A stretch of 31,126 nucleotides of DNA from NCBI GenBank assembly GCA_049472355.1, contig JBLIRP010000046.1, positions 1 through 31,126 of the forward strand, read 5' to 3'. This stretch comes from a bacterium (lineage in GTDB: Bacteria > SZUA-182 > DTGQ01 > JAFGSM01). The position numbers were made by a program, and so were the translations under genes. Positions 4,576 to 25,400 of the stretch are shown piece after piece; position 1 is the stretch's first letter; every line of letters begins with the position of its first letter. The notes below the pieces were generated by a model. It saw only the letters and a program-made list of their open reading frames with translations. It did no database searches and was not told where the DNA came from.

Positions 4576-5208
4576 TCATCGATACCGGAGCGTATAGGGA
4601 ATGCCTCCGATCATGAACTGCAGATCCGCATAGAGGTCCTTCTTCAGCGCGATTTGACGTATCTTGCACACCATCCGGTACTTCAATTGATGGACCGCAT
4701 TGATCTTCATATTCATGATGTCCGCAACCTCGGAAAAATTGAACCCCTCTTCATAGATCAACCTGAAGAGCAGGTTGTATCGCGCCGGAAGACTCTCCCT
4801 CAGGATGAGTATCATTTCCCTGAGGTCCCTGCGATCCATCTTTGCGGAGATCCCCGAGGCCAAATCGAGATGCTGGATCCTTTCGATCTCGATGAAGGTC
4901 TTTTTCTCCCTCAGATAATCAACGGCAATGTGGAAGATGATCACCCTCAGATAGGCAAGGAACGAGCGCTCATTGCATCCACGGAATTCCCTTATTTTTT
5001 TACAGTTTTCACTCAGAAGCGCCAGAAATACATTGTTAAAAATGTCGTCCAGATCGTCCTCGTTATACGTATAGAGATATCGCTTCATGGTCTTGGTGAT
5101 ATAGTGGTAAATGATGCGGCCGTAATGCTCGATAAAGACCTCCCATGCGTCTTTATCCCTTTCTCCACACCTTTGCAGCAGCGCGCAAAAATCCTTTTCC
5201 GTGCCCAT
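4576..5208 (-). CDS. ECF-type sigma-70 family sigma factor
   Basis: Region 2 (AWEVFIEHY...DDLDDIFNNVFLAL...FLAYLRVI...AVDYLR) and region 4 (EEGFNFSEVADIMNMKINAV). Confidence 0.85.
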   Translation of the reverse strand: MGTEKDFCALLQRCGERDKDAWEVFIEHYGRIIYHYITKTMKRYLYTYNEDDLDDIFNNVFLALLSENCKKIREFRGCNERSFLAYLRVIIFHIAVDYLREKKTFIEIERIQHLDLASGISAKMDRRDLREMILILRESLPARYNLLFRLIYEEGFNFSEVADIMNMKINAVHQLKYRMVCKIRQIALKKDLYADLQFMIGGIPYTLRYR

Positions 5209-5398: not shown

Positions 5399-5414
5399 AG
5401 CATTTACTGTGCCA
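5399..5414 (-). promoter_or_regulatory. Putative sigma-54 (-24/-12) promoter upstream of the ECF sigma gene
   Basis: Minus strand TGGCAC-AGTAA-ATGCT, one mismatch to TGGCAC-N5-TTGCW, about 190 nt before the ATG. Confidence 0.55.
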
Positions 5415-7492: not shown

Positions 7493-8101
7493 GATTTTTC
7501 AGCATCCCTCCAATGCATCCAAGATACCTATACTATAATACGCATGTGCCGTTATACAAAATTATGAGCAATTATGAGCCTTGCCCCCTCTCGATGCCGC
7601 GCGATCATAACGAAGATTCCACAACCGGTCAACCTCGGGAGGGGTGCCTTCCCATGCGCCCTGGTATGGGAAGCGGTGCGGGTGATCGACGAGCGGGCAC
7701 GATAACCGGATACAACTACTCTGAATATTAGACGGAAAAACATCGTAAAATTTTATACAGGAATGAATTTTGCCCGCATTCCCGGTCTGCTGTTTCCCAT
7801 CCATATAGTTATTGTATCGTCAAAAATCCCTGAATGAAAGGGCATCGGAATCATGAACAATCGCGCGGATGAAGGGCCGGCCCTTTTGAATATGTCCATC
7901 CCGCTCCGCGTTCAACGGATAATCATAGGGTGATTCCTCACGTGGTTATCCAATGAGGGAAAAACCGCTCAATCCGGGCATACCTTTTTCATGCTCGGCA
8001 ACGTCTTTATGCCGGGGATGCCGACTGTTCCAGTCAGGGTATGGGAACCGGATACCAAGGATAAAACGGGGGGGGAGATGCACGGGATATGTAACCAAGG
8101 C

Positions 8102-8602: not shown

Positions 8603-11600
8603 TTATGAAGGATGGGATGATCTGTTATTATTCTCCGCAACGCCTTTGGCGATCTGCCTGATGCGGGGGTCCGGGTCCTCTGCAAGGGATGCAAGTATTT
8701 CATCCCCTTTGGGATCGGACAACTGGGCCAGGGCAACTGCTGCGGCAGAGCGCACCTCGTCATTCCTCTTTTTCCAGAATGCCCAGGGCCTGTTTCGCTC
8801 CAGAATGTGGGCGAGCGGCTCCACGCTGCCCGGGTCCTGCAACTCCCCAAGGGCCTTACAGCAGGCGATTATCAGTTCCTCCTTTTTTGCCGATTTCAGC
8901 AGGGAGAGCAGTTCTCCGCTCGTCGCTCGAATCTTGAGTCTACCGAGACATCGTACTGCTGCGGTGGCAAGATGCATTGACTGGTTTCTTGCGCAGTTCA
9001 TCAGAAGGTCCACCACATACTTCTCGTTGAGTCGTTCGGCGAGTTCAAACGCCGCCTGCTGAACACGGGAACTCCTGTCACCCAGGAGGAGAGGTAACTC
9101 CCCCTTCAAATCATGCGTTAGGCTGTCAATAACCTCCAGTATGCGCACACGCTCCTCGGGATTGATCTCGATGACAAGCTGGCGCTTGAGGAGCAATCCG
9201 GCCTTGGGCCCTATCTTTTCAAGGAGGCTGGTGGCGAGCCTCCTCACCCGGTACTCGTCACCCTTCTTGACAATATTGACAAGAAGCGGCAGGGCTGCAT
9301 CTCCCAGGCTTCCCAGCAGTTGTACCGCCTTCTTTTGTTTGGACGCACTGCTTGACTTGAGGTCTTCCTCGATGAGCCGCTCGACCTGGGGCTCCAGTTT
9401 GAAATCGAGAACCTTGGTGAGATTCTGATAACGATCCTCACCTGATTCACGGATTTTCTGAGCCCATCGATGAAGATGAACAAGGAGCCTGCTCGCCGGC
9501 GGGTATTCGGCAAACTGGATGAAGATCACCGACATCTGCTTGAAGAGGGTGACAATCTTCAGGAGGATTTCCTCCTCCTTTTCGCTCCCCATGATGTCCG
9601 GAAGCGGATCCGAAAGGAGTGCACAGAGCTGATAGCGCGCATCGAGGTTAACGGTGTCGAACGTGCCCTGACAGATATCGATAATCCTTTTGCGGATAAG
9701 GAACTCACGCCCCTGGAACTCCTCGAACAGCCGGGTGACGGTTTTTTTCACCTGCCTTTTATCATCCTCGAGCAGATAATCGGTCAGCCGCTCCTGCGCC
9801 ACCTTGAGGAAATCCTCGAATGTTTCCTCGACATCGGATTTCTCCTCTTGTGTTTCCTCCTCTTTTGTTTTTTCCTCCTCAGGCTCCATTCCCACGGCAG
9901 GCATCGGGATGCCCTCCAGCATTTCATAGAGATGGCGGTTCACGAGCAGACCGGCGAGCCTGGCCTCGACTGCAAAACGCCCCCAGAAATATTCATCCGC
10001 CTTCCCCTCCCAGATCCGCCGAAGCGCCCCCAGAAAGGCATTCAGGTCTCCGTCGGTAAGGCCCTGCATGAAGGTGAGGCTGTGTATCATTGCCTCGTCG
10101 AGGAATTTAAAGAGCGAGTTCATCTGTTCCTTGAAATCCGTTGCCTCCACCTTTATGCCGTTGACAAGCAATGTGTCCTTAATCCGGGAAAAGGAGAGTG
10201 TCTGATGTGTGCTCAAGAGGGCAGTCAGGGCAGTCATGAGCTTTGCCACCGAATCGGACACCGCCTTGCTTTCCTGGGGATATAATCGCAGGTTCTTGAA
10301 TGTCCGAAGCAACGACCTGGTGACATCGAGGACCTGATCAAGTTCCGCCTGATCAAGATTCTGATCCTCGGCATGCAGGGTGAAAGAAGAGGAAAGACTC
10401 TCCAGATCGGGCTGGGCTGCATGCTCGCCCTCCTCAACCAGGCCCGCATCATCACCATGGTCGGCATCCTGATCATCCGCCCTGGTATAGCGTACCTGCT
10501 TTAATTTAATGTGGGTGAGGCCGTTTTCCGTACAGAAGTGCTTCCAGAACGCAGGGGCGATGATGCCTGACTTGAAGCGACAGAAGCCCTCGATCACGAT
10601 CACCAGTTCCTGCTCGGAAACCTCCCTGCAAAAGGCCATGCCCTTCAATTCAAGATGGTTGAGGAATTCGGTGAAATCCTTTGCCACGGGCCTGAATTCG
10701 GCGATATCGAGCTCCTGTTCATTGATAAGCAGGTTTTCCTCGGTGAGTGTGATCGTGAGCAGATCCGCATTCTCCGTTATCCGATCGAGCGCCTCCTTCA
10801 ATTGGGTGATGGCCTTCGTAACGGATTTGCTTCCCTGGGGGTACAGCTTGATTTTGTTTATTGTGCCAAGGAGCTGGCGCAGGAGTGCGGGCACCTGGCC
10901 CATACCTGCAGAATCAAGAGGTTCTTCGGCAATTGGAAAGTCATCCGCTATATCATCCTTATAGTCAAGTGCCTCCTTTGCATTGAAGATTTTGGTATTC
11001 CAGGAGGCGGTGACTTGCTCGTATTTTCTGGCACGCTCCTGGTCTGCCGAGCGCTTGAAATGATAGGCCAATGTCGCCGCCGAATGGAGCAACTTCTGAT
11101 TATAGAGCGTCTCCTGGTAGGTGCCGATACGCTCGTGCATCTCCTGCCTGCGAGTCTCTTCGATACCGCCATAGGTGATCTGGAGGATCCGCTTGCTCAG
11201 GAAATGGAGCATCTCATCATTGAGCTTGAATTCCGTGCTGATAAGGCCCTGATTCATTGCCTGATCAATGAATTCAAGCACATTGTTCTCGATTTTTCCC
11301 GAGCTTCCCACCAGGGAGCTCATCGAGACATCCTCACCGATGGCTGAGAAGTGCTCGAGAAGTTCCCGATTTTCCTTGTCCAGGGCGGCGATCTTTTCAC
11401 ACACGATCTCATCCAGGGATCGCGGGAGATATCCCTTCTCGAGAGGACGCATGATCCACTTCTGGCCCGCCATAACGATTTTCTGATCCTGGACCAGCTT
11501 GCGCAGGATTTCATTGAAAAAGAGGGGATTGCCCTGGGTGATTTCCATGAGATCCTGGACAAATTCCTTTGATGGGGAAAGATCGGCAAAAAGCCCGTGC

Positions 11601-12880
11601 ATGTGATCAATGGCATCCACCTCATTGAGGGGGGTGAGGGTAACCTTGACGATATTCAGTTCCTGATGATAGCTTTCGTAGAAACGCTGCAGGGAGAGTT
11701 GCCTTTCCCGTGTATCGCATGCTTCCGTAGAGGTGGCGCATACGAAAAGGGGGACCTCCCCGCGCAGGATCAGGCGCCGCAGCAACAGGAGTGTTGCCTC
11801 GTCACTGTAATGCAGGTCATCAATGAACAGGATGAGGGGGCGGTTGTTGAGCACCTTCGGGATAAAACGGAGCAGCGTCGTAAAGATGCCCTCCCGAAAG
11901 GATTTTTGATCCTTCTCCTGCACCTTTTCTTTTGTTTCTCCCAGAAACGGGAGGATGTGCGCAAGGTATGATCGCTCATCATTGTTCAGGTCGATGCATG
12001 CATCCGGACCGGAGTCATAGAGCTGGGTCAAAATGGAGATAAGGATGTCCGTCAGCAGATAGTATGGGCGGAACATCTCCTGGGGGAAACCGCGCACGCT
12101 GACCTGAAGGGCCTTCTGCTGCACCAGGTTGGTGCTGATCGCCCGAAGGAGCTCCGTCTTTCCCATGCCCGGGGAGCCTTCGATGACCAGAAACTGGCTC
12201 TGCCACTGGCTGAATTTTTTGAAGGCCTCCGCCACCTGCGCCAGTTGTCTTTTTCTCCCGGTAATCTTGATTTCGTTGAGGTGATAGAGGGCGGTCTTCG
12301 TCAGCACCTCATCAAGGTCGATGTCATCGGCATCGGCGAGACGATTTCGGCCAGTCTTTTTTGCGTAATACAGGGCGGTATCGGCCTTTTGAATGAGTCC
12401 CTTTCCACCCTGGGAGTTCATCAGGGTGGTTGCGATCCCCATGCTGAGCGTAATGGGCATGTCCCTGTCGTTTTCACTCGAATGAAAGGGTTGCTCCTGG
12501 ACCCGCCGGAGCATTCGCTCCGCCACTTCAAACGCCGCCTTTTTGTCCTGGAAGGGGAGAAGCACCACGAATTCGTCTCCCGCATACCGGACGGGAATCG
12601 CCTCATCACCGCTCACCTCCTTGAGGATGTGCGCAATCCACACCAGGGCCTCATCACCCATGTTGTGACCATAGCTATCATTGATCTCTTTGAAATGATC
12701 AACATCGATCATGATCAGGGAGAGGGGGTGATCTTCGGGATCATTCCAGGGAATCTTGAATTGCAGGTGATGATGCAGATAGCGACGATTGTAAAGCCCG
12801 GTGAGCTCATCCTCGAAGATCAGCCGCGCCGGATCCTTACCCATATGTTGTAGAAAATAGTGAAATTCTTTATATTCCAT
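8603..12880 (-). CDS. Diguanylate cyclase (AGDEF) fused to an AAA_16/STAND-type ATPase, two tandem internal domains and C-terminal HEAT repeats
   Basis: DELTGLYNRR, DVDHFKEIND, RYAGDEF and AKKTGRN; Walker A GSPGMGKT, Walker B LFIDDLH, TQGNPLF; HEAT-like repeats at the C-terminus. Start ATG 12880 with RBS GAGG. Confidence 0.85.
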   Translation of the reverse strand: MEYKEFHYFLQHMGKDPARLIFEDELTGLYNRRYLHHHLQFKIPWNDPEDHPLSLIMIDVDHFKEINDSYGHNMGDEALVWIAHILKEVSGDEAIPVRYAGDEFVVLLPFQDKKAAFEVAERMLRRVQEQPFHSSENDRDMPITLSMGIATTLMNSQGGKGLIQKADTALYYAKKTGRNRLADADDIDLDEVLTKTALYHLNEIKITGRKRQLAQVAEAFKKFSQWQSQFLVIEGSPGMGKTELLRAISTNLVQQKALQVSVRGFPQEMFRPYYLLTDILISILTQLYDSGPDACIDLNNDERSYLAHILPFLGETKEKVQEKDQKSFREGIFTTLLRFIPKVLNNRPLILFIDDLHYSDEATLLLLRRLILRGEVPLFVCATSTEACDTRERQLSLQRFYESYHQELNIVKVTLTPLNEVDAIDHMHGLFADLSPSKEFVQDLMEITQGNPLFFNEILRKLVQDQKIVMAGQKWIMRPLEKGYLPRSLDEIVCEKIAALDKENRELLEHFSAIGEDVSMSSLVGSSGKIENNVLEFIDQAMNQGLISTEFKLNDEMLHFLSKRILQITYGGIEETRRQEMHERIGTYQETLYNQKLLHSAATLAYHFKRSADQERARKYEQVTASWNTKIFNAKEALDYKDDIADDFPIAEEPLDSAGMGQVPALLRQLLGTINKIKLYPQGSKSVTKAITQLKEALDRITENADLLTITLTEENLLINEQELDIAEFRPVAKDFTEFLNHLELKGMAFCREVSEQELVIVIEGFCRFKSGIIAPAFWKHFCTENGLTHIKLKQVRYTRADDQDADHGDDAGLVEEGEHAAQPDLESLSSSFTLHAEDQNLDQAELDQVLDVTRSLLRTFKNLRLYPQESKAVSDSVAKLMTALTALLSTHQTLSFSRIKDTLLVNGIKVEATDFKEQMNSLFKFLDEAMIHSLTFMQGLTDGDLNAFLGALRRIWEGKADEYFWGRFAVEARLAGLLVNRHLYEMLEGIPMPAVGMEPEEEKTKEEETQEEKSDVEETFEDFLKVAQERLTDYLLEDDKRQVKKTVTRLFEEFQGREFLIRKRIIDICQGTFDTVNLDARYQLCALLSDPLPDIMGSEKEEEILLKIVTLFKQMSVIFIQFAEYPPASRLLVHLHRWAQKIRESGEDRYQNLTKVLDFKLEPQVERLIEEDLKSSSASKQKKAVQLLGSLGDAALPLLVNIVKKGDEYRVRRLATSLLEKIGPKAGLLLKRQLVIEINPEERVRILEVIDSLTHDLKGELPLLLGDRSSRVQQAAFELAERLNEKYVVDLLMNCARNQSMHLATAAVRCLGRLKIRATSGELLSLLKSAKKEELIIACCKALGELQDPGSVEPLAHILERNRPWAFWKKRNDEVRSAAAVALAQLSDPKGDEILASLAEDPDPRIRQIAKGVAENNNRSSHPS

Positions 12881-13122
12881 ATATTCCTCAACCTGCCTGA
12901 TTGCCAACAGGCAACCCCCTCGATCCACCAAGGCATGGGGAGTACTCACATAAAGGGTATGTGTACCTGTTTAAAAGAATATATAAGTTTTTATCGGAAT
13001 CCGGGGATAAAATGTTCTGAAATCAGCGCGTGATCCGCCATCGATGGGCATACCCAATGCCCTCCTGTTGGAATCTCGTGAGGAACGCTGTGGTGTGCAA
13101 CTATACCGGCGAAGATATCCTG

Positions 13123-13246
13123 GTGAAACGCACATGAGCCTGATGAAACTGCGAATGTAGAATGTAGAATGTAGAATGTAGAAGTGAAACGCACATGAGC
13201 CTTCGGCTCACAAGGAAGCATGAAAATGCCCCAAAGGGGATTTTTT
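13123..13246 (+). repeat. Composite dispersed repeat: heptamer module plus two-hairpin unit
   Basis: gtgaaacgcacatgagcc-tgatgaaactgc-(GAATGTA)x4 at 13153-13180, then gtgaaacgcacatgagccttcggctcacaaggaagcatgaaaatgccccaaaggggatttt. Confidence 0.9.
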
Positions 13247-13500
13247 GGTGAGCATGTTGACCACGCCCACCAGAAATGCACCCGGTGACCATCTCTTCGC
13301 ATCGGATCGCCATATCCTCGTTGACTGCGGAAGCGGCATCCTCCTTCTACCGGAGAGGGCGGGGATTGCTTCCCGGATACCATGCGTATCGAGGAATGTA
13401 AGAAGGTGTATGACGGGGATGTGGCGCCAGCGGAGGACCTTATGGCAAGGGAGATTCCCTGACCCTCTCACCGCACGGTGAGAGGGCCGGGGAATGAATA

Positions 13501-14151
13501 TTACCATCCCAAGAGTGCTGCCGGGGTCAGAAAATCAAAGATATCGGGAGCCGGGAAGAGTGTGGTCAGACCGGCCAGCGGGATCCCGGCATTCAGTGCG
13601 AGTATCACCTGCGGGGTAAGAGGCACCGTGGCCGCTGCGATCAGAGCCGCCGGATCCGCAATGCCCAGCAATGAGGGCCACGCCTGCAGGAAGTAGTTGT
13701 TTGCAAAGAGCACATTCTGCTGCAGCCAGAGGGTATCGGTGGGCGGCAGTTGATTGTACAGATCAGGAAGCCCCAGGGGAGCTGCCGCACCCGCTGAATC
13801 CAACAGGCTGCTTGGAGGCCAGAAATTGATTCCATAAAAGGGATCGAAGTAGGCCATACCCACAGGGGTATTATACAGCAGCCAGGGATAATTCAGGCTC
13901 GGATTCCATGTCAATCCTGGCTGCACCGGAAGCACCGTGGAAGGCGCCAGACTGCTCACCACCGGCGTGGGGAGCCCTGTGGCGGCATCCACCGGAGACA
14001 GGGCCGGAGACCACAACGGCCACAGCGTGTTATAGGGAGGCAGGGCCGTCCAGTAGTTCTGAGCCAGGGCCGCTCCCGCCACGGCAACACAGCACAAAAA
14101 TACGAGTGATACGACGACGATACATGATTTCCAAGGATTTTTTCCCATCAT
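13501..14151 (-). CDS. Secreted Pro/Leu/Trp-rich hypothetical protein
   Basis: Start ATG 14151 or 14148 after GAAAGGGG. Sec signal ending ALA-Q; the mature region has strongly biased composition. Confidence 0.75.
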   Translation of the reverse strand: MMGKNPWKSCIVVVSLVFLCCVAVAGAALAQNYWTALPPYNTLWPLWSPALSPVDAATGLPTPVVSSLAPSTVLPVQPGLTWNPSLNYPWLLYNTPVGMAYFDPFYGINFWPPSSLLDSAGAAAPLGLPDLYNQLPPTDTLWLQQNVLFANNYFLQAWPSLLGIADPAALIAAATVPLTPQVILALNAGIPLAGLTTLFPAPDIFDFLTPAALLGW

Positions 14152-14389
14152 AAATGAAACACCCCTTTCCGTAACCTTACACATGATGATAGAAATGGTG
14201 ATGTTGCTCCCCATCCCGCAAAAAGCCCACGAGAGTGTGAGGAGAAGATTAATGATAGCTGTTGACACCCTCCACCAAGTGGAGTGCTATGAAGCAATGG
14301 AACAGTGTTCGTGGAATATCTTCCCTGCTGTTCTCGTTTTCACCCCCTTCCGCTTCATGAACAGTTTTCTACCTCTTTTCAACAAGGGG

Positions 14390-14405
14390 AGCATAAACGG
14401 TGCCT
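14390..14405 (-). promoter_or_regulatory. Putative sigma-54 promoter
   Basis: Minus strand AGGCAC-CGTTT-ATGCT keeps the GG-N10-GC spacing. An AT-rich tract lies just upstream. Confidence 0.4.
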
Positions 14406-14550
14406 GAATAACGGGAATATTCTTTTGCCTTAAATTCAAAGAGATTATGGATAATGAACCCTGTGCACGAGGGGAGCGCATTCATAAAGGGTATGGGAAT
14501 GGGTGAAATTTTTATGAGGGGTTCATCGATCCTCAACGAGGCCCTATCCC

Positions 14551-16776
14551 TTAAATACACCCCTCTCCGATCTCTTCGCCGTTGTCGCAGGTAACATACT
14601 CCGGGATTTCGGGGTCCGCCCCGGTCCCTTCCGCACACTCGCAATTACTGCATGGGCTCACATAGGTAAGAACGAGGTCTTCCCCGTTGCAGTCCTGATC
14701 GATCCCGTCATTTGCAATCTCAGGGGCGCCCGGATAGATGGCGGGATCATGATCATTGCAGTCCAAGCCCCCAGCCTTGTAGGAAATATACCCGTCATCG
14801 TCCATATCCATATTGCCGATCCACCGGGCGCTGATGGCACGAAATTTATTGTCATCGTCGTCATCATGGTCATCATCGTCATACTTGTCATATTTGTCTA
14901 TTTTATCCCTTGATTGCTTGGGTGCCTTTTTCTCCGAGGCATCATTGCGTATATTGCCCTTCCTGGTAAGGGTGCGGTTCACCCCTGCCGGATACAATCC
15001 CCCGCCTTTCAAACCGCTGAGGAACGAAATGGCATCGCCGGCATTGATCAGTCCGTAGCCGTACTCGGCATCCCTGCCCTGAGGGCCGAGATCCCGCGCG
15101 GTCTTGGCAAGGATATCCCGTATACCCCCTGTATCGAGCGATGGGTCAACGGAGAGGATCAGGGCGATCACCCCGGTGGTGATTCCGGTTGCCATGGACG
15201 TTCCCTGCAGGAATGCATATCCGAGCCGTGAGGGGTCCGCCAGGATCTCACCCCTGTCGGTCATTTCATATCGCGGATCAAAGGTCTCCTGCAGTATACC
15301 GTCCGGATAAAGATCTTCATCCAGGTCGAGATAGATATTGCCTCCGGGTGCCACCACATCCACCTCAGGCCCACGATTTGAATAGTAGGCCAGGCGTGAG
15401 TCAAGCTGGACCGCCCCAACGGCGATAACCTCGTCGTAGGCAGCGGGATAGCATACCGCATCACGCGCATCGTTCCCGGTCCCGGCCACCACAATCACCC
15501 CCGCATTGTGGGCATAGAGGATGGCATCGCGAACCACGGGTCCCGGCTCAAGGCCGACGGGCCATGCAAGGCTCAGGTTAATGACATTCGCACCATGATC
15601 CACGGCATAGTAAATCCCTTCCGCCAGTGTGCAGGAAAAGCCCTTTCCCCGATGATCGAGCACCTTGACGATCATGAGCGTGCAATCGGGTGCAATACCG
15701 ACGCTCGCCTCTGTGGTGCTGTGCCAAATCAGATTTGCCAGGTGTGTGCCATGGCCGTTATCATCGTTGGGATGGGCATCATGATCGATAAAATCGAATC
15801 CGTTCACGTCGTCAACATACCCGTTCAGGTCATCGTCCAGGCCGTTGCGCGGCACTTCCCCTTCGTTTACCCAGATGGCTGCTTTTTCCAGACCCTGGGC
15901 GGCGATATATGCCCCATCGCTTGTTGTGGAAAGGCGGGAAAGCTCGTTCTCCTGGATCGGGTTCTCTTCATATGCCACCCCTGTGTCCAGGAGTGCGATC
16001 GTCAGCGCCGGGCTCCCGAAGCTCTCGGCCCAGGCGGCCTCGATGTCGATATTCTTGAGATACCAGAGGAATGTTCCATCCTTTGAGCTATAATCTCTGG
16101 GCATCCACCGTTTTCTCTTTTCGTTTCGTTCCAGCCTTGTATTCCCGATCCTCTTCTCGATGGAAGAGGCAAAGCGTTTCAAACGGTCCTTATCAAATCC
16201 GCCCTGGGCATCGCACTCGTAATCGAGCTGTGCATATTGCACCATGTCCGCATGATCGCCTTGATACTCCTCCAGAAGCCCCTCCACGGATCCGTCCGCT
16301 TCCACCTCCACCTTCCACACCCTTCCCTTGGGAAGCACGCATTGAAGTTTTCCCGGCACCGGGGGTTTTTCACCTTGATCGATTTCTTCCTCGACCTCGG
16401 GTGTGAATTTCACCAGGATATGCCTGGTGCTGTATCGAACCGGGCGGTATGACGTTTCCTCCTGCTCCCTGTCTTCTATGGTATCCTCCGATACCACGGC
16501 ATTCCCCGCATTGTGTTTCTTTGTGAGAAAAGAGCTGATGGACGACCCTTTTTCATTCAGAGCGGAATACCCGCTGCCTGTTTCATGCTCGGTCCTATCC
16601 CCTTCATTCTCACGGATCGGGTCCGTCAGACGGATTTCCGCCGCCGGATTGCTGCAAACAAAAGCTGCATTTCTCGATTCAAGGGCACAAGACAGGCACC
16701 ATACACCCAATCCCAGGATGGCAAGGGCACCTGCCACCAACACCGGCACAGGGACTTTTCCTATGTGGTTCCTCAT
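14551..16776 (-). CDS. S8 subtilisin-like serine peptidase with a C-terminal MopE-like metal-binding repeat
   Basis: Catalytic triad LLDTG, HGTH, GTSMA; oxyanion AGTGN; N-terminal signal/anchor and propeptide; [27 protein letters not shown] motif. Start probably ATG 16776 (alternative 16797). Confidence 0.9.
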
Positions 16777-16879
16777 TGTGATCCCTTCCTTTCCCATGAA
16801 TGCCCCTGAGTGTTTGGCATGTTTTACCGCTCATGGATTATAGGTCCACTGCTCGTTTAGGTATCACGATCATTCAGGT

Positions 16880-17377
16880 TCAGGGATTCATGTATACGAA
16901 TTTGATGCTCACCCTGGCCGTGAACTGGTTGGTCGTCTTCTTGTACTCGAGCACCCGATCTATTACGGGGATGAGCCCTGTTCCATAGACAAGGGCAGTC
17001 GCCAACTGTCCATCGGTGTCGACCATGCCGACCAATACCTTCGGCGTAAGGGAGTCGAATTCCTCCTTGGAGAGGTTTTGTACGTAGGTGACGAGTACCC
17101 CCTCGTCATATCGGTACTCATCCCGTTTGAGACATTCGCACTTTTTGACAAAAAGGTTCAGATGGGTGAGTGAAGGGCTTATGTAGTCGCCGACCAGGTA
17201 CCCTACCACATTCGACCCGACTGCAGGGGCGTTGAGGTAATCCTGGGCCGCCGTCCCCACAATGTATGCGCCTGCATAGCTGAAGGAGACCAGGCTCATC
17301 AGCAGGAAGAGCAAAAGGGCGAACATCAGAAACACACTGCACAAAAAGGAAATATCACGTCTTGTTGTTACGTTCAT
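16880..17377 (-). CDS. Secreted hypothetical protein
   Basis: RBS GGAGG before ATG 17377 (alternative in-frame ATG 17455). Hydrophobic signal ending SYA-G. No family recognised. Confidence 0.65.
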   Translation of the reverse strand: MNVTTRRDISFLCSVFLMFALLLFLLMSLVSFSYAGAYIVGTAAQDYLNAPAVGSNVVGYLVGDYISPSLTHLNLFVKKCECLKRDEYRYDEGVLVTYVQNLSKEEFDSLTPKVLVGMVDTDGQLATALVYGTGLIPVIDRVLEYKKTTNQFTARVSIKFVYMNP

Positions 17378-17563
17378 TTGTTCCTCCCCCCGTGAGTTGT
17401 TTACATCCCAAAGGAGCATGTCCTTGTGTTTTATCCAATGGTCTCCGTTGATCATTGTTCCCCTCTCCTTTTCTCCCCGTTCACCATAAATCCTCAATCA
17501 TCCTGTTCGGTTCGCTGTTTTGTTTTGATACCCCCTCTGCCCCGCAACGTTGTTCCCCTTGTG

Positions 17564-17579
17564 TGCAACCGCAATGCCA
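17564..17579 (-). promoter_or_regulatory. Sigma-54 (-24/-12) promoter
   Basis: Minus strand TGGCAT-TGCGG-TTGCA, essentially consensus, directly downstream of an enhancer-binding protein gene. Confidence 0.75.
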
Positions 17580-17734
17580 CCCTCGATAATATGAGAAGAA
17601 TGGTGAATGAAGGGTTTGCACGAATACCATCAACGCGATAGTAATATATTGTTATTATTGAGTTTTGTTAGACGCCGGCTGAACGAAGGGCGTGTGGGCC
17701 ATGTCCGGGCGGGGCAGGTTATGGGGAGCAGACC

Positions 17735-17874
17735 TGTTACTATTTGCTAACACCTTTCGGGCGGAGGATACACTCGAACGGATGCGGATTATGAGTAACA
17801 TTATGTTTTATTTATTTTTAATCGATATCGCCCGGGTGTGATTGAATACTAACACCTGTTACCATTTTCTAACT
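17735..17874. promoter_or_regulatory. Putative upstream activator (enhancer) sites TGTTA-N8-TAACA, three copies
   Basis: TGTTA-ctatttgc-TAACA (17735-17752), TGTGA-ttgaatac-TAACA (17837-17854) and TGTTA-ccattttc-TAACT (17857-17874). They lie about 155-295 nt upstream of the sigma-54 site. Confidence 0.6.
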
Positions 17875-19743
17875 GTTCCCTGTTTTTGAGCGATACTGAT
17901 AGATATCCAGGTTGTAGCGCTGGATCATCTGGTGGAGAAGGGACCGATTCATATTGGCCTGCCGGGCGGCCCGGGCGACATTCCCCCCGGTCTCCTTTAA
18001 AAGGTCGGTGAGGAAACGGGTGTCCATGTGCTCCTCCAATTCCCTTTTTGCCTGGGACTTCATCCGCTTATAGGCGGTATAGTCCCGTGCAGCGGCAATG
18101 GGGGCATCGGGGGCCATGAAACCGGCGTCCATGCCCCTCACCGCCTGTACATGATCGGGAAGGTCCTGGGGTGTTATCAGGGCGCCCTCCGCAATGACCA
18201 TCGCCCTCTTGATGACATTCTCAAGCTCCCTGATATTTCCCGGATAGGTATACATCAGAAGCAGTTCCTGGGCCTCGTCGCTGACACCCTTGATCCTGCT
18301 GTTCAAGGATGGACCGAACTTCTGCATAAAATGCCTCACCAGGAGGGGGATATCGTCCTTCCGCTCCCTGAGGGGGGAGAGCTTGAAGCTCACCACATTG
18401 ATTCGATAATAGAGGTCCTCCCTGAACCTGCCTTCCTTCATGAGATGGGCGAGGTTTCGGTTGGTTGCCGTAATGATACGTACATCCACCCTCTTGATCC
18501 TGTTGCTCCCCAGCCGTTGAATCTCCCCACTCTGCAGGAAGCGCAGGATCTTCACCTGGAGTTTCGGGTCCATATCACCGATCTCGTCCAGAAAGAGGGT
18601 CCCCTTATCGGCCTCTTCCAGGAGCCCGATCCTGGAGGTGTTGGCACCGGTGAACGCACCCCGCTCATAGCCGAACAACTCCGACTCCAGAAGGTTCTCC
18701 GGTATCGCTGCACAATTCACACAGATAAACGGGGCCTCGGCGCGCGGGCTGTTGTAATGAATGGCCTTCGCAAGGAGTTCCTTGCCGGTGCCGCTTTCGC
18801 CCTCGATGGTGACCGGTATATTGAACTGCGCCGTTTGCATCGCCGTTTCCATGGTCTTCACCACACCGTCATTCATGCCGACGATCTGAGAAAACCCGTA
18901 TTCCTTCTTTGTCTCCCTCCTGAGATTGATGTTTTCCTGGCTGAGGGATTCCTTGATCAACTTGAACTCATTCCAGGTGTTGATATTCTCGAAGGCAATG
19001 GAGATCTGGGAGACCAGGATCTGTATCAGGATCTCGTCCTCCTTGGTGAAATGTCCCTGTCTTTTGTTGAGCACCTCGAACACGCCGAAAGGCCTTCCGC
19101 TTGGATTGAGAATAGGTGTGCAGAGAATGCTCCTGGTGGTGTACCCTGTCTTCTTGTCGATGTCCGAATTGAAGAAGGGGCAGGTATAGGCATCGGTGAT
19201 GTTGACCAGTTTCCCTGTCTTCAGCACGTGCCCGGCAACACCGAGATTCTTGTCAAAATGGAGCACATTCCCCTTTGTGCCAAGGGCGATCAAGGAGCGG
19301 AGCTCCTTTTCGTTGCGATCGAGGAAAAAGATGCTGCTGCGCTCCGCCTCCATAATGGCGGGGGCCTTTTGGGCAATCAATTTCACCAGGGTATTGATGT
19401 CGGGATTTTCACTGATGAGGATGCCGATCTCGATGAAAAAGCCCATGGTCTTTATGTAACGTTGGATATTGTGATCCTTGTCCTGGAACACCAGGGATGA
19501 CAGGGGCTGATAGGGTTTCATGAGGGGGAGGAAGGTCATGTCGACCTGCATGGCCAGTGAGTCGAGGAGATCCTCCTCGCTGATGATGCCGCGCTGGATG
19601 AGTATCTCTCCGAGCCTTTTCCGTTGCTCCTTGTGTCTTTGCTGAACAAGGAGCGCCTCGTCCAGTTGCTTCTTGGTCAGAAATCCGTTCTGGAGCAGGA
19701 TTTCCCCTATGGGCAGGCGCTTTATGCTCGTGGTTTTCTCCAT
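17869..19743 (-). CDS. Sigma-54 enhancer-binding protein, MshEN-GAF-AAA+-HTH
   Basis: GESGTGKE, ESELFGYERGAFTGA, FLDEIG, FREDLYYR, YPGNIRELEN and a Fis-type HTH. GAF domain with DKKTGYTTRSILC and NK...F...D. Tandem (R)LGExL..G....L...L..Q motifs at the N-terminus. Confidence 0.92.
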   Translation of the reverse strand: MEKTTSIKRLPIGEILLQNGFLTKKQLDEALLVQQRHKEQRKRLGEILIQRGIISEEDLLDSLAMQVDMTFLPLMKPYQPLSSLVFQDKDHNIQRYIKTMGFFIEIGILISENPDINTLVKLIAQKAPAIMEAERSSIFFLDRNEKELRSLIALGTKGNVLHFDKNLGVAGHVLKTGKLVNITDAYTCPFFNSDIDKKTGYTTRSILCTPILNPSGRPFGVFEVLNKRQGHFTKEDEILIQILVSQISIAFENINTWNEFKLIKESLSQENINLRRETKKEYGFSQIVGMNDGVVKTMETAMQTAQFNIPVTIEGESGTGKELLAKAIHYNSPRAEAPFICVNCAAIPENLLESELFGYERGAFTGANTSRIGLLEEADKGTLFLDEIGDMDPKLQVKILRFLQSGEIQRLGSNRIKRVDVRIITATNRNLAHLMKEGRFREDLYYRINVVSFKLSPLRERKDDIPLLVRHFMQKFGPSLNSRIKGVSDEAQELLLMYTYPGNIRELENVIKRAMVIAEGALITPQDLPDHVQAVRGMDAGFMAPDAPIAAARDYTAYKRMKSQAKRELEEHMDTRFLTDLLKETGGNVARAARQANMNRSLLHQMIQRYNLDIYQYRSKTGNS

Positions 19744-20133
19744 CTATGCATGTACGTGTCGGGCACGGTCGGCGGACAAGGGTTCCGACATCTTTTGGAG
19801 GGCCTCGTCAAGCGAGTTATAGATCCTGGTGTAGCGCGTAATCCCGATCAGGTTGAAGATTTTCTTGAAATAATCGGACAGCCCGGTCAGGCCTATTTCC
19901 TGATCCCTCTTCATACCCTCGCTGATGAGGCTGATCAGGATGGCTATCCCTGCACTGGTGATGTAATTCTCCGGGTGAAATTCAAACAGGATCTTTTTAT
20001 GTCCCTTGTTGCAGAGGTCCTCATAGACATCCTCCATGACCTTTTCCATTGACAGGGTGAAATCGGTCATGGTGGAGATGACAACGACACCCTCGATCGT
20101 ATGGACCCTGAGTGTCTCCTTTTTCCGTGCCAT
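19744..20133 (-). CDS. STAS-domain anti-sigma factor antagonist (RsbV/SpoIIAA-like)
   Basis: YITSAGIAIL phospho-Ser motif, IFNLIGIT and YNSLDEAL. Start ATG 20133 with RBS GGAGG. Abuts the activator gene. Confidence 0.85.
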   Translation of the reverse strand: MARKKETLRVHTIEGVVVISTMTDFTLSMEKVMEDVYEDLCNKGHKKILFEFHPENYITSAGIAILISLISEGMKRDQEIGLTGLSDYFKKIFNLIGITRYTRIYNSLDEALQKMSEPLSADRARHVHA

Positions 20134-20335
20134 TGGAAACCTCCCGTTTTCCACTTATTTATCGACAGATTTCCTAAAACTCTCCTGCAAAAAGGAGTTC
20201 CGGGGGGGAACCAACAAGATATGTCAGGCGGAGCACTATGTTAATCCTTACAACCGCAGAAAAATCTGCAATGACATCATTGAAGGGAATTCAGAAAATA
20301 CACCCTCATTTATAAAATCCGTCCGATCGGATTGC

Positions 20336-23245
20336 TCAGGCCTCACCTCTGAAATGAACGATCATCCGGCTGGTGCCCCTGATGCTCGTTTGACTCAATC
20401 CCGTCTGTTCCGGAGCAAGCTCCAGACAATGATAATCCCCCAGAAGTTTCATACCCTTCGAGGCATCTCCCCTCCCTCCTCCATCGGGAGTTCCGGCATG
20501 CCCATCCTTAATGATCCCCCTGTTCAAACCATCCGGGAAGAATGAGGCCACCAGTTTATACCCATGAGGAGATTCCTGATGACACTGCGCCGCCTTTCGA
20601 TACATCCTCTTCAGGTGGTTTTTCATGGAGACGATTTCCTCGTCGCACAATGAATACAAGTGGGCCATGGATTCAATCCCCTGTGAAACGATCTTCAAGG
20701 TCATCGGAGAAAAGGGAAGAAACAGGAGCGTATCCACGGGGCTTGCCTCGATATGTTTGAGTATGATGATGGTCATATCATCATCAAAGCACCTTTTCCC
20801 TGAAAAGTCCCTTAATTCCTCAACGATCCGGTTATATATCTCCTCCGGGTCCAGGTGGACCGAATGCGCAAATATCTCCCGGAGTCGATGGAAGTTGAAG
20901 AACTCATTGTCCCTATTCTTGACCTCCAGCAGACCATCCGTGTACAACAGGATCACGTCCCCCTTGTTCAGGGAGAGGGTGAGCGGGGTATAGGAGAGTT
21001 CTTCGAATATTCCGAGGGGAAGACGCTCCCCTTCGGTCTTGAGAAATCTTGTCTCCTTCCGGTCATGGTCGTAATAGAGCGGAGGAGGCAGGCCGGCATT
21101 CGAGAGGATGATCCTCTTGTCAGGCAACAGGAGTGCATAAATGAACGCCACGAATGCCTTCTTCTTTGTCTCCCGGAGCATGTGCCTGTTTACCTCCTGC
21201 ATTACCGTTGCCACGTCCTTTATGCAGATGACCTGATTCTGGCATATCGAATGTGCCGCACTCATCAGCAAGGCCCCTGAGATGCCGTGACCGGAGATAT
21301 CCCCCATGACAATACCCAGTTCCTTTTCCCCCTGGGAGGGAAACTCAAAGAAATCGTAGAAGTCCCCTCCGATCTCACTGCTTGGGATGATCTGATTGTA
21401 CACGACAAAGTCCTTGATGGTAGGAGAACCCTCCGGCAGCATTCTCCGCTGGATGACTCCGGCGATCTTCAGGTCCTCTTCGATCTTCTCCTGTTCGATA
21501 CGGTCATGGATGAGGTTGACGTTTTCCAGGGCAATGGCCGTCTGGTCGGCAATGATACGCAGGAATTCCACATCGGCGATCGTATAGTACCTGCCCGATT
21601 TCATGTTCCCGAGCATCATGAAACCGGAAAGCTTGTCATGGGTGATAAAGGGAATGATCAGTTGCATGTTCCATGAATCAAAGATGCGGAGCATCTCCTT
21701 TTTATACGGGAAGTGCCTTGTTTGATCACAGTAGTTATCTTTCTGTACCTCCCTCTTTTCCCGGAGCAGCACCTTCACCAGAGGGTTCGATGCTCGAAAG
21801 ACCGCATTGTTTGATTTAATGAGTACGTTGTCGTGAGGATTGTATTCCCTATAGGTGCCATCCTCGCCGTCGAAGAGAAAAATACGTATATCCTCGATGA
21901 ACATAGTATTGGAGAGGATGTTAAGAACCCTCAAAATCAGCAGATCGGGTTCGAATATGGAGGTGATATCCTTCAGGAGCTGTTTCACCGGCTCCTTATA
22001 GTCATATTTCTGCCTGAAAAAGAGGCGGTTCACGAATACCTGCGCCCTGCTGGTAATCGGGTTGAAGAAGAATACCACCAGCAGGAGGAAGAGAAAATTG
22101 AATACATGGTGATGCTGTATGAATACCGGCTTGACGATGACATTGACACTGAGGATGAACAGAAGATACAAGAAGGCGATGAGGGTGGTGGCGAGGAGAT
22201 ATCCGGTGGTTCGCTTGACGAACACGTCGATCTCGAAAAGGTCGTGCTTCACGATTGCATAGGCTATGGACAGCGGGAATACGGTGATAAAGGGGAGCAT
22301 CGCCAGTTCGATGCTGGGGAAAATGAACACGCCGAAGAGCGTGTTGAGGATCGGCTCCACCAGCGGGAGAAGCACCCCGATAAAAAAGCCCAGGAGTATT
22401 ACCCGTATCTTCGATTTGGCCAGTCGGTAAGGGATCTTCCGGTATTTGTAGATGAGCACGCATATGAACACGAGAATCGAAAAGAATATATAGATGAGCC
22501 AGAAGATGCGCATATACCTTGGTGATTCGGTAAATGAGGAAGAGAGGGACCGTGTCGTTACGAACAGCAGCAATGACGCGGCATAGGTAATCGTGGTATA
22601 CCACAGATGCCGTCGTGCATGCTCCTCATAAAAGGGGAATATGAATGTCATGTGGAGGATGGTCGCGGGGAGAAAACAGAACCCGATGGTCTCGAAGATG
22701 AGGATCCAGGATGGCCTGAGGGGGCGCTGATTGAAAAAGATCATCACCAGCCCGGCGCAGAGGCAGAAGAGCAGGAATGACCATCGCCTGTCGGCTATGG
22801 GGGTGCTGAGGAAGACAAAGGAACCGATAACAATGAGGAGTATCCCCATGAGCCAGGGCACGCCGAAGACCAGGGCGGCCCGGGCCAAACCGAACTGGGT
22901 CGTCCGGTAGATGATGGTGTGGACCTGCCCGTTTCGTGACACCACGAAACGATTTTCCGCCCCTATCTGCCTGTTCACCAGGTCCCGGATGCCGGCCATG
23001 CTTTCCACCGGCATGCCGTTCACCTCCTGAATCCGGTCTCCGAGTCGAAATCCCGCACTGTATCCATCCTCATACACCCGGCCTACAATCGCCCATCCGC
23101 TGCATTTCCTCACCCCATGCCCGAAAAAAGGCGCAAAGCTCCATTGATAGATGTTGAAGAGATAGAGGACGGCAACAACGCCGACTGCGGCAAGAAAAAT
23201 GACGGATAGGATTATCTCGATATGTTTTACCTTCTTCTGTATCAT
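20336..23245 (-). CDS. Membrane PP2C/SpoIIE phosphatase: PDZ, multi-TM, GAF, PP2C and a degenerate HATPase-like tail
   Basis: AGFRLGDRIQEVNG (PDZ); several hydrophobic segments; YAIVKHDLFEI; GAF; intact GGDFYDF, GDISGHG, YTDG and DDMT motifs. Confidence 0.88.
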   Translation of the reverse strand: MIQKKVKHIEIILSVIFLAAVGVVAVLYLFNIYQWSFAPFFGHGVRKCSGWAIVGRVYEDGYSAGFRLGDRIQEVNGMPVESMAGIRDLVNRQIGAENRFVVSRNGQVHTIIYRTTQFGLARAALVFGVPWLMGILLIVIGSFVFLSTPIADRRWSFLLFCLCAGLVMIFFNQRPLRPSWILIFETIGFCFLPATILHMTFIFPFYEEHARRHLWYTTITYAASLLLFVTTRSLSSSFTESPRYMRIFWLIYIFFSILVFICVLIYKYRKIPYRLAKSKIRVILLGFFIGVLLPLVEPILNTLFGVFIFPSIELAMLPFITVFPLSIAYAIVKHDLFEIDVFVKRTTGYLLATTLIAFLYLLFILSVNVIVKPVFIQHHHVFNFLFLLLVVFFFNPITSRAQVFVNRLFFRQKYDYKEPVKQLLKDITSIFEPDLLILRVLNILSNTMFIEDIRIFLFDGEDGTYREYNPHDNVLIKSNNAVFRASNPLVKVLLREKREVQKDNYCDQTRHFPYKKEMLRIFDSWNMQLIIPFITHDKLSGFMMLGNMKSGRYYTIADVEFLRIIADQTAIALENVNLIHDRIEQEKIEEDLKIAGVIQRRMLPEGSPTIKDFVVYNQIIPSSEIGGDFYDFFEFPSQGEKELGIVMGDISGHGISGALLMSAAHSICQNQVICIKDVATVMQEVNRHMLRETKKKAFVAFIYALLLPDKRIILSNAGLPPPLYYDHDRKETRFLKTEGERLPLGIFEELSYTPLTLSLNKGDVILLYTDGLLEVKNRDNEFFNFHRLREIFAHSVHLDPEEIYNRIVEELRDFSGKRCFDDDMTIIILKHIEASPVDTLLFLPFSPMTLKIVSQGIESMAHLYSLCDEEIVSMKNHLKRMYRKAAQCHQESPHGYKLVASFFPDGLNRGIIKDGHAGTPDGGGRGDASKGMKLLGDYHCLELAPEQTGLSQTSIRGTSRMIVHFRGEA

Positions 23246-23419
23246 TATGTTTCAAGGCCCTTGTCGGGATTCTCTCTCCGGAAAAACAACTCGGGATAGT
23301 CGTGACGACCTGCCTGGACCATGAAATTTCCGGCGATCATGACCTCTCCCGAAAAATAACTTTGAATGCATATGGCAATCCCCAGTGCTTGCACCCTGCG
23401 CATACCTGCAGGGTCCCTG

Positions 23420-24760
23420 TTACTGATCCAATGGATGCGCCTCAATGACCCTATACAGAAGGACCTCCTTCTTTACGTTCTTGAACCTCTGGTATCCGAC
23501 CCATTCCAGGGAGAAAGCATCCCTGACCCTTGATGCAGTCTCGGCGCTCACCAGGATCTCCCCTTTGGCGGCAAATGATCCGATCCGTGCAGCCATGTTC
23601 ACGGTTGACCCCAGGGCCGTATATGTCCATCGTGAACCGTAATATCCTTCAAGACGTGTCGATCCGATATACGCCTCACCTGAATGGATCCCGATATTGA
23701 TAACGAGGGGTATCTTCGTCCCCTTTATTTCCGGTATGAGCTGCTGCGTCCTGTGCTTGATGGCAAGGGCCGTTCTGACCGCATTCAGGGCATGAATGCA
23801 TCTATCCTTGTTGTGAAAGATGATCATGAGTCCATCCCCGGCGGTCATGTTGATATCCCCGCCGTATCGATAGATGTCGTCAAAAAAACGGGAAAAATAG
23901 GTCTCGATGATCCGGGTGATATCCTCATAGTTGAGGGTCTCGCTCATGGCGGTGAATCCCTCGATATCCAGAAACAGGACGGAAATATCCTGCTCCTGTT
24001 TCTCACACTCAAGTGATTCAGGGTGGTCCTCAATGATCCTTTCAAGGGATTTTGGTACATACTTGCACAAAAGGGTCTTGGCCTTTTCAAGGAGCTGGAT
24101 CTTTTCCAGTGTTTCTTCGAGGGTCTTGTTTTTATTCCTGAGGTCGGTGTTCAGGTGCTTGATGATTTCAAACGACTTGGCGTTCTGGATATTGATGGCA
24201 AGCTGTTTTGAAAGCGTGGACAAGAGCTCACCCTCTATCTGGGAAAACGGCTCACCGGAAATCCTTGTGCTGAGGGCGATCCCCCCGGAAAATCGCTCAT
24301 CGATCACGAATGGGATAAAGGCGGATATCCCCGCCGCCCTCAAAAACCTAATAAATCCCTTTTCCGCGGTGTTCAATCGAGTGTGCTCGTAGACACGCCT
24401 TGGTTCAAAAAAGGAGAGCAGGCGTCTTTTACAGAAGATCCGGGTTATATGTTCCCTGTTCAAAAATTCTATAACCAGTTGAAGTTTTTCCTTTTCCGTG
24501 TCCCTGCCTTCAATAAAGTCTATCCGCGCCTGCTTCTTGTCGATGAGAAGGATGAATCCCTGAAAGATTCCGAAAGTCCCCATGATCATCATGAGAAAGG
24601 CATTGATGATCTCCTCGGTGTTATTGAGCAGTGCTATTTCCTGGTTTACATCATAGAGGGTCTTGAAATAGAAGTATTCGAGGTCCCTCTTCTGCAGTTC
24701 ATTCTTCAGCTTCGTTATCTCTGCTGTAAGGGTTATGTGTTCCTTGCCTATTAAGGACAT
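23420..24760 (-). CDS. GAF plus class III nucleotidyl cyclase
   Basis: VLFLDIEGFT, AGDGLM, IGIHSG and YTALGSTVNMAARI motifs. Start probably ATG 24760. Confidence 0.85.
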   Translation of the reverse strand: MSLIGKEHITLTAEITKLKNELQKRDLEYFYFKTLYDVNQEIALLNNTEEIINAFLMMIMGTFGIFQGFILLIDKKQARIDFIEGRDTEKEKLQLVIEFLNREHITRIFCKRRLLSFFEPRRVYEHTRLNTAEKGFIRFLRAAGISAFIPFVIDERFSGGIALSTRISGEPFSQIEGELLSTLSKQLAINIQNAKSFEIIKHLNTDLRNKNKTLEETLEKIQLLEKAKTLLCKYVPKSLERIIEDHPESLECEKQEQDISVLFLDIEGFTAMSETLNYEDITRIIETYFSRFFDDIYRYGGDINMTAGDGLMIIFHNKDRCIHALNAVRTALAIKHRTQQLIPEIKGTKIPLVINIGIHSGEAYIGSTRLEGYYGSRWTYTALGSTVNMAARIGSFAAKGEILVSAETASRVRDAFSLEWVGYQRFKNVKKEVLLYRVIEAHPLDQ

Positions 24761-24808
24761 AGCGGTCGTCCATACCCTTTGTTGACGTATCGGTTCAAAC
24801 ACCCAGAC

Positions 24809-25000
24809 ATTTCATCTGAAAATCCCCTTTGGGACATTTTCATGCTTCTTTGTGAGCCGAATGCTCATGGGCGTTTCATCTGAAAATCCCCCAGGATTTT
24901 CATGCCTCTTTGTGAGCCGAAGTCTCATCTGCGTTTCACTTCTACATTCCACATTCTACATTCGACATTCGCAGTTTCATCCGGCTCATGTGCATTTCAT
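24809..25000 (-). repeat. Composite dispersed repeat: heptamer module plus two tandem two-hairpin units
   Basis: Reverse strand: catgagccggatgaaactgc-(GAATGTN)x4-gaa, then two units of about 60 nt with loop variants tcctggggga and tgtcccaaagggga. Confidence 0.9.
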
Positions 25001-25400
25001 CCCATCACCACATATCGTGTATGCACTGTGAAAAAAGCATGCACAATGCGGTGCCGGTTTTCATGCATGCCCCATCGGCAGCAATGATCTCTCATAATCC
25101 CTGTGACAGGGAATGCTTGGACTCCTATTATTCTATCGGTGATTGGGATGATTATTTTCATTGATAAAAGGTCATAAGTTTTAAGACATTTATTGCTCAT
25201 TACAATGTGGAACAGATGCCATTTCAGGGCCTACGAATGACCATAGTGAAGACTTGGGCACAATCCGGGAAACAAGGGCGCAACCAGACTCTCAGGAGAT
25301 GGCCGGCGATATACAATCCAACCGATACATATGAGTGCATCGGGAACGCATCGCAAAAATCCCACACATCTCCATGATGAGATGCCTATAGCGATTTTTT

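Follow-up and report, generated by a model that had tools for sequence, protein, structure and literature searches.

A partner-switching module without a SigB-type factor, encoded beside a sigma-54 activator in an uncultured bacterial order

The Bacillus pathways RsbU-RsbV-RsbW-SigB and SpoIIE-SpoIIAA-SpoIIAB-SigF each use a PP2C phosphatase, a single-domain STAS protein with a phospho-acceptor serine and a HATPase_c_2 kinase. The syp locus of Vibrio fischeri holds a STAS protein, kinase/phosphatase proteins and a sigma-54 bacterial enhancer-binding protein (bEBP) together, has an extracellular product and has no known cognate sigma-70 factor (PMC4517449). In the SiaABCD and HsbR-HsbA-HsbD systems of Pseudomonas, and in BgrSTUWV-BgrR of Sinorhizobium, a STAS or STAS-like protein is described as acting on a non-sigma protein (PMC8457831). 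Most partner switches that lack a sigma factor, those of SypA and BtrV among them, have no established target. Here, we describe a related locus in a 31,126-nucleotide stretch of DNA, hereafter the window, which is the entire contig C90 of assembly G000 (3.49 Mb, 87.5% complete). It is a real, narrowly distributed cassette. Our preferred reading, held tentatively, is that a sigma-factor-less Rsb-type phosphoswitch lies beside a sigma-54 activator of a secreted protein and a subtilase, and that the dephosphorylated STAS protein acts directly on the bEBP. The outputs of Sia, Bgr and Hsb are diguanylate cyclases, whereas the candidate output here is a bEBP.

Seven open reading frames (ORFs), all on the minus strand, make up the region. 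Their Pfam matches are, in order, Guanylate_cyc; PDZ_6, GAF and SpoIIE; STAS; GAF, Sigma54_activat and a sub-threshold HTH_8; none; Peptidase_S8 with a MopE-like repeat; and none. The direction of the genes and the order of their domains are those that an earlier note on this DNA had proposed. The conserved unit is smaller. It comprises five genes, encoding a PDZ/membrane/GAF/PP2C phosphatase, the STAS protein, a MshEN-GAF bEBP, a small secreted protein and the subtilase, and the order of these five is shared beyond G000. The first and last ORFs, for a cyclase and a Pro-rich protein, are later neighbours outside this core. The features of the unit, and of a kinase encoded elsewhere in G000, are as follows.

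20336 to 23245, minus strand: PP2C/SpoIIE phosphatase; N-terminal transmembrane segment, PDZ domain (about aa 55-117), about eight more hydrophobic segments, GAF domain (aa 457-575), SpoIIE domain (aa 640-830).
20339 to 20740, minus strand: RsbW-like pseudokinase tail of the phosphatase (aa 836-969).
19744 to 20154, minus strand: single-domain STAS protein; likely start ATG 20133; phospho-acceptor serine in ITSAG, codon 19954-19956.
17869 to 19743, minus strand: sigma-54 bEBP; MshEN aa 11-66, GAF aa 115-252 with NK..F..DE, AAA+ domain with Walker A/B and GAFTGA, helix-turn-helix.
17857 to 17874, minus strand: distal enhancer-like palindrome of the TGTTA-N8-TAACA type, one mismatch; overlaps the bEBP stop codon.
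17837 to 17854, minus strand: second enhancer-like palindrome, one mismatch.
17735 to 17752, minus strand: proximal palindrome, exact TGTTA-N8-TAACA; wholly intergenic, 173 nt upstream of the -24 element.
17564 to 17579, minus strand: -24/-12 sigma-54 element TGGCATTGCGGTTGCA, upstream of the secreted-protein gene.
16880 to 17497, minus strand: small secreted protein; likely start ATG 17377; signal peptide, conserved CEC motif; beta-rich predicted model (pLDDT 79).
14551 to 16797, minus strand: subtilase (S8); N-terminal hydrophobic segment, D271/H349/S534 triad motifs, MopE-like metal-binding repeat.
9950 to 10399 of contig C5: intact RsbW-type HATPase_c_2 kinase (84.7 bits).

The distribution of the module was determined in a comparison set of 20 genomes of the phylum. 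Near full-length orthologues of the phosphatase occur in 7 of the 20, with two of them cut by contig ends. The same seven genomes carry the STAS protein, the secreted protein and orthologues of the kinase (56-100% identity); an eighth genome has only kinase relatives at 30-36%. The bEBP is found in six of the seven carriers and is absent only from a genome that is 63% complete. A likely outer-membrane protein is present in five. Eleven of the genomes reach at least 90% completeness; eight of these, including a member of the same family, do not carry the module. Genomes G006 and G007 have the order kinase, Lnt, phosphatase, outer-membrane protein, STAS, bEBP, secreted protein, S8 protease. The metagenome locus L052 shows the last five genes of that order, outer-membrane protein through S8. 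The outer-membrane protein has 430 residues in the G006 and G007 clusters, and one relative matches Phenol_MetA_deg. Lnt (31-34% identical to the other Lnt of the genome) and this likely barrel protein are found next to the phosphatase throughout the fuller clusters (L034:10793-12385 and 6625-7935; L035, L037, L039).

The junction between the STAS and bEBP genes is tight, as the earlier note had observed for the window, where the STAS stop codon directly precedes the bEBP ATG. STAS was the gene before the bEBP in all nine loci with upstream DNA, and the two genes are no more than 14 nt apart in eight. One metagenome copy has a transposase-like ORF directly upstream of STAS (L049:185-1174; family judged by eye). 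In two unrelated genomes, members of the wider STAS subfamily lie tail to tail with a fusion of cyclic nucleotide (cNMP)-binding, ParA-like and patatin domains (L090:7578-9482 and L091:9885-11900).

All three proteins of a partner switch are present. The SpoIIE domain of the phosphatase scores 145 bits against Pfam and has intact metal-binding motifs; GGDFYD, GDISGHG, YTDG and DDDMT are retained, with minor variation, in 11 orthologues. Compared with its Bacillus counterparts, the protein adds a PDZ domain, a membrane bundle, a GAF domain and the pseudokinase tail. The tail aligns with the kinase family (HHalign probability 94.7% against the kinase alignment). Its catalytic Glu/Asn box and G boxes are unrecognisable, and a distant relative, P0233, has an intact HATPase_c_2 domain at this position. 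The best Protein Data Bank (PDB) match of the phosphatase is 6k4e, which we take to be SiaA. The membrane-plus-GAF region matches PrsK (TIGR02916, E 2.2e-17, under the cut-off). PrsK-PrsR belongs to the XrtA/PEP-CTERM system, in which PrsR is a sigma-54 bEBP that drives exported proteins. Conversely, the present system has a serine phosphoswitch, not His-Asp transfer, and its bEBP has no receiver domain. In the STAS protein, the phospho-acceptor serine aligns with that of the SpoIIAA DSSG motif and is invariant in 46 of 46 aligned relatives.

The earlier note reported no intact kinase. This holds for the window, but G000 does encode one on contig C5, in addition to the degenerate phosphatase tail. 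It is the only strong RsbW-type gene of the assembly (one of eight HATPase_c_2 matches with E <1e-6, the others being histidine-kinase-sized frames). It is 63% and 57% identical to the in-cluster kinases of G007 and G006, which lie two genes upstream of the phosphatase. The nearest solved structure is RsbW (6m36, E 8.7e-11), and the protein scores under the RsbW and SpoIIAB cut-offs. SpoIIAB Arg20, which matches RsbW Arg23, is needed for sigma binding. That position is Ala in 7 of 7 module kinases, and Arg in 3 of 3 RsbW-like kinases of a genome that has SigB. In Bacillus RsbW, Arg23 is described as contacting RsbV (PMC7340262).

No SigB-type factor had been seen in the window, and the same is true of the carriers as a group. 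None of the seven, three of them at least 95% complete, has a SigB/F/G protein over the TIGR02980 cut-off; the single such genome of the 20 is a non-carrier. The phosphatase, the STAS serine and the HATPase_c_2 kinase are those of the Rsb/SpoII class, and the sigma factor is not there. The system works like the non-canonical partner switches (syp, Sia, Bgr) and falls outside the canonical class on the sigma factor.

A conventional switch could nonetheless act on a sigma-70-family protein encoded elsewhere. The kinase would then hold FliA/WhiG, an RpoS-like factor or RpoD until STAS frees it, and the bEBP would be a co-transcribed regulator of the same response. The chlamydial RsbW is described as acting on an unlinked primary sigma factor (PMC8256260, PMC11619594), and our STAS protein retains the Asp that pairs with RsbW in Bacillus. 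Furthermore, G000 has a FliA/WhiG protein over the cut-off (L102:2423-3184, contig C77), with no FlgM or flagellin found in the 87.5% complete assembly. However, no sigma gene occurs in any cluster copy examined, FliA-sized matches are also found in genomes of the phylum that lack the switch, and the kinase has no Arg23 equivalent. We consider this explanation unlikely.

The bEBP carries two ligand-type domains ahead of its AAA+ module. The claim that one of these is MshEN is borne out by matches of the N-terminus to Vibrio cholerae MshE (5htl, E 1.7e-6) and PilF (6f8l, E 1.5e-13). As in the MshE and PilB/PilF receptors, there is a tandem 24-residue motif. It differs from theirs in having a linker of 8 residues, not 5, and in being fused to a GAF domain and a bEBP. 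In addition, position 11, where motif 1 begins with Arg, is Pro in the window protein, and Pro replaces this first Arg in most members of the bEBP family. Perfect conservation of the motif may not be required, according to Wang 2016 (PMC5013675). Under the relaxed motif of that study, 7 of 13 family members fit with both halves, 4 with a single half and 2 with neither. The window protein fits in both halves, so c-di-GMP binding at MshEN is likely. Neither the passages nor the two supplement files of PMC5013675 that were searched name a sigma-54 fusion of MshEN.

The GAF domain is of the PDE/CyaB sequence type, a type that does not by itself establish a ligand. Its best match is the PmGH GAF and its closest set is PmGH, CyaB2 and PDE2A. 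A literature search for the GAF residues that contact cNMPs found none. At the C-terminus, HTH_8 scores 18.5 bits against a cut-off of 22. The AlphaFold model of the bEBP is poor (pLDDT 57). When STAS aa 1-122 was modelled together with two bEBP chains (aa 67-462, a stretch without MshEN, the lid and the HTH), the prediction gave no answer (score 0.00, controls not folded). Searches with the first 270 residues returned 125 matches. Among the 120 listed, 11 were close clusters at 60-95% identity, and most of the others listed were GAF-bearing adenylate cyclases. Its reach is about 11 clusters in 5.8 billion proteins and, as far as genomes show, one uncultured order. For proteins P0212, P0154 and P0009 the contig of origin measures 11,490 bases in each case, and for P0151 and P0010 it measures 4,888, which hints at two further co-located sets.

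Next, we examined the DNA between the bEBP and secreted-protein genes. By itself, the -24/-12 site at 17564 is within chance: the window has four matches with at most one mismatch, and 14 of 100 shuffles reach four. It is, however, conserved in relatives. Of nine regions of this locus type, eight have TGGC-N8-TGC ahead of the secreted-protein gene (the exception, L052, reads TGA in place of TGC), as do all four regions of a paralogous type that is described below. Two or three TGTTA-N8-TAACA sites (at most one mismatch) lie 116-312 nt upstream in 7 of the 9 regions, where local shuffles lead to an expectation of 0.02-0.09. If G002 is left out, whose contig begins before any bEBP is visible, the count is 6 of 8. 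Hence, the enhancer-like palindromes and promoter proposed in the earlier note are conserved in relatives. The palindromes were found in none of the three paralogous-type regions scanned. Sequence conservation makes it likely that this bEBP binds them, and rpoN is present in G000.

The cyclase, phosphatase, STAS and kinase genes of this locus type were found to have no upstream -24/-12 site with at most two mismatches. Transcription of the switch by the bEBP therefore seems unlikely, and we rejected that arrangement. This separates the locus from syp, where SypG, a receiver-domain bEBP, transcribes the sypA locus. Here, a MshEN-GAF bEBP closes the switch cluster, and its likely targets are the secreted protein and subtilase; a bEBP-dependent site upstream of the STAS gene was not found. 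A wider regulon was also considered and rejected. Across the genome the exact enhancer shows no enrichment, which suggests a local regulon: of 39 sites with at most one mismatch, only the three here and one on contig C79 lie upstream of a -24/-12 element. The assembly as a whole contains over 20 bEBP genes and 71 strict -24/-12 sites. Many of these sites precede genes for secreted proteins rich in Gly, Tyr and Ser, which suggests that sigma-54 governs an extensive programme of exported proteins in this organism.

The two likely products of the promoter differ in how recognisable they are. The catalytic motifs of the subtilase are intact. Conversely, the secreted protein was not matched by sequence in Pfam, NCBIfam, Atlas or the PDB, and Foldseek found nothing at E <= 0.001 with the pLDDT-79 model. 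A profile search of 1.84 billion representatives gave 11 matches, several of which are repeats or chance. The description of these products as a structural protein module is therefore not upheld, as the secreted protein has no family or fold match.

Several observations favour direct control of the bEBP by STAS: the adjacency of the two genes, the absence of SigB/F/G from carriers, the Ala at the kinase Arg23 position and the lack of a sigma-54 site before the switch genes. There is also precedent for a STAS protein acting on an adjacent non-sigma protein, in the pairs SiaC-SiaD, BgrV-BgrR and HsbA-HsbD (PMC8457831). The pathway might run as follows. The PDZ/membrane part would sense an external cue, likely a peptide or an envelope protein, and so activate the phosphatase. 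The phosphatase and the RsbW-type kinase would together set phosphorylation of the STAS serine, as their intact motifs and the behaviour of the families suggest. Unphosphorylated STAS would bind and gate the co-translated bEBP, by analogy with SiaC and the adjacent SiaD. The bEBP would likely bind TGTTA-N8-TAACA and, judging from conservation of both elements, open the 17564 promoter. A likely second input is c-di-GMP at MshEN, while a cyclic mononucleotide at the GAF domain is merely possible. That STAS binds and gates the bEBP in this way, so that a single AAA+ activator combines c-di-GMP with a PDZ signal from the membrane, is a proposal that we hold a little more loosely than the preferred reading at large.

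If true, bEBPs would acquire a novel mode of input and partner switches a novel class of output. A MshEN bEBP would also offer a c-di-GMP route to sigma-54 transcription unlike that of FleQ, which is described as binding c-di-GMP in its ATPase domain. Our literature search, mostly of open papers, turned up no paper on a STAS-controlled bEBP or on a MshEN-bEBP fusion. The elements in question (switch, candidate target, enhancer and promoter) all fall within 6 kb and could be rebuilt in Escherichia coli with five genes and a reporter. Thus, whether STAS can control a sigma-54 activator is directly testable.

A number of observations weigh against direct control. In one locus, a 360-nt insertion separates STAS from the bEBP. 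Outside the phylum, none of nine more distant STAS relatives (26-38% identity, found in 9 of 381 genomes) has such a bEBP adjacent. G003 and G004 have lost the enhancer sites and the S8 gene at this locus yet keep STAS-bEBP. G000 has an orphan FliA/WhiG and two RpoS/RpoD-like sigma factors that the kinase could target in the conventional way. The genes of any physically linked cassette would co-occur, and the carriers are related to one another, so that the pattern speaks to linkage, not to mechanism. Finally, a paralogous locus in the same genus keeps the switch, the secreted protein and S8 without the MshEN-GAF bEBP or its enhancer.

The paralogous locus has the order kinase, PAS kinase, receiver protein, Lnt, phosphatase, outer-membrane protein, STAS, -24/-12 site, secreted protein, S8. 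A sigma-54 site lies upstream of the receiver gene, and the copies in G001 and G002 additionally carry a receiver-type bEBP between the receiver gene and Lnt. The locus is contiguous in G004, and was pieced together across contig ends in G001 and G002. In G000 it probably sits in an assembly gap, since contig C5 ends inside the PAS kinase. Both finished trees set the paralogous copies apart; the phosphatase tree is of the quick type, and the trees do not order the copies relative to the root. The arrangement fits a duplication after which the bEBP stayed with one copy, while the kinase, Lnt and outer-membrane protein stayed with the other. This would fit sharing in trans, and also a switch tied to the secreted products. 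A second apparent duplication, in G000 itself, was discarded: it lies on contig C105 (13.7 kb), which is 99.9% identical to a contig of the sister species where other contigs are about 90% identical. The cassette only looks duplicated because C105 is likely mis-binned.

Because the paralogous locus keeps the switch and the secreted unit without this bEBP, it is the secreted unit that constantly accompanies the switch. On a reading that takes up this point, the bEBP would drive the secreted protein and protease through its own ligands, and its two ligand-type domains would suit this. STAS would act post-transcriptionally on a separate target, and both arms would be needed for one envelope function. 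The target could be Lnt, the outer-membrane protein, or a step by which the secreted products mature, are exported or act. Control of this parallel kind is described for syp, where SypG governs transcription and SypE/SypA a separate post-transcriptional step (PMC4517449). However, the syp bEBP transcribes a locus that starts with the STAS gene, and no -24/-12 site precedes the switch in the present locus type. In addition, no other cytoplasmic target is conserved beside STAS, which abuts the bEBP in 8 of 9 loci. We regard parallel control as doubtful in its own right, and nearly as likely as direct control of the bEBP by STAS.

The genes flanking the conserved unit, and a further promoter-like site, are listed below.

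23420 to 24802, minus strand: class III nucleotidyl cyclase; likely start ATG 24760; Guanylate_cyc E 1.6e-19.
14390 to 14405, minus strand: weak second -24/-12-like site AGGCACCGTTTATGCT, two mismatches; outside the core.
13501 to 14268, minus strand: Pro-rich secreted protein (11-13% Pro); likely start ATG 14151; outside the core.

The earlier note had drawn all seven genes into one cascade that began with a GAF-cyclase. The Guanylate_cyc domain is clear, but the assignment of its N-terminal region as GAF-like is weak (GAF_3 E 0.0032, under the cut-off). Moreover, the cyclase stands ahead of the phosphatase only in this genus, in 4 of 4 loci with upstream DNA (G000, G001, G002 and G004; G003 is cut). 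It is missing from this position in G006 and G007, which represent two other families. At the other end, the Pro-rich gene follows S8 only in G000 and its sister species G001. The second -24/-12 site does exist as a match; it has two mismatches and no enhancer, and was seen only in G000 and the sister genome, which is about 90% identical.

In the full cascade, the cyclase would make a cyclic nucleotide for the GAF domains of the bEBP and the phosphatase, and the bEBP would also drive the Pro-rich protein, to build an extracellular structure. The position of the cyclase in the genus agrees with this, as do its retained metal-binding Asps and Asn/Arg, and the bEBP GAF is closest to the PmGH, CyaB2 and PDE2A domains and keeps NK..F..DE. 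On the other hand, the purine-selecting Lys (DKFVGD in CyaB) is Met in 4 of 4 copies (NMTAGD or NMTSGD), so that the signature of a class III adenylate cyclase is lacking, and two other families have the cluster without the enzyme. The Pro-rich gene is adjacent in two genomes only. Its family has 34 matches in the assembly; the enhancer lies near none of the 34 and a -24/-12-like site near 3. We consider the full cascade improbable, more so than any other explanation discussed here.

The Pro-rich family has no Pfam or Atlas match. Its 34 matches, on contigs that include C82, C116, C52, C27 and C72, occur in tandem arrays of up to eight copies, and one is a domain within a 4574-aa protein.

Other genes of the window bear on second messengers and sigma factors. 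Just downstream of the cassette, 8603-12949 (minus strand) encodes a 1448-aa GGDEF-AAA ATPase-HEAT protein, a possible local source of c-di-GMP that is found there only in G000 and G001. At 27911-29929 (minus strand) there is a membrane fusion of adenylate cyclase, TPR and HD-GYP domains, which from its domains would make one messenger and likely break down c-di-GMP. A gene for an extracytoplasmic function (ECF) sigma-70 factor at 4576-5208 (minus strand) is outside the conserved unit and has a -24/-12-like site about 200 nt upstream (5399-5414). Lastly, intergenic repeats of 60-140 nt, which resemble miniature inverted-repeat transposable elements (MITEs) or repetitive extragenic palindromes (REPs) and have dozens of copies in the assembly, occur at 337-407, 13108-13251 and 24806-25001, with a second family at 1265-1490. 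Two of the copies flank the region described here.

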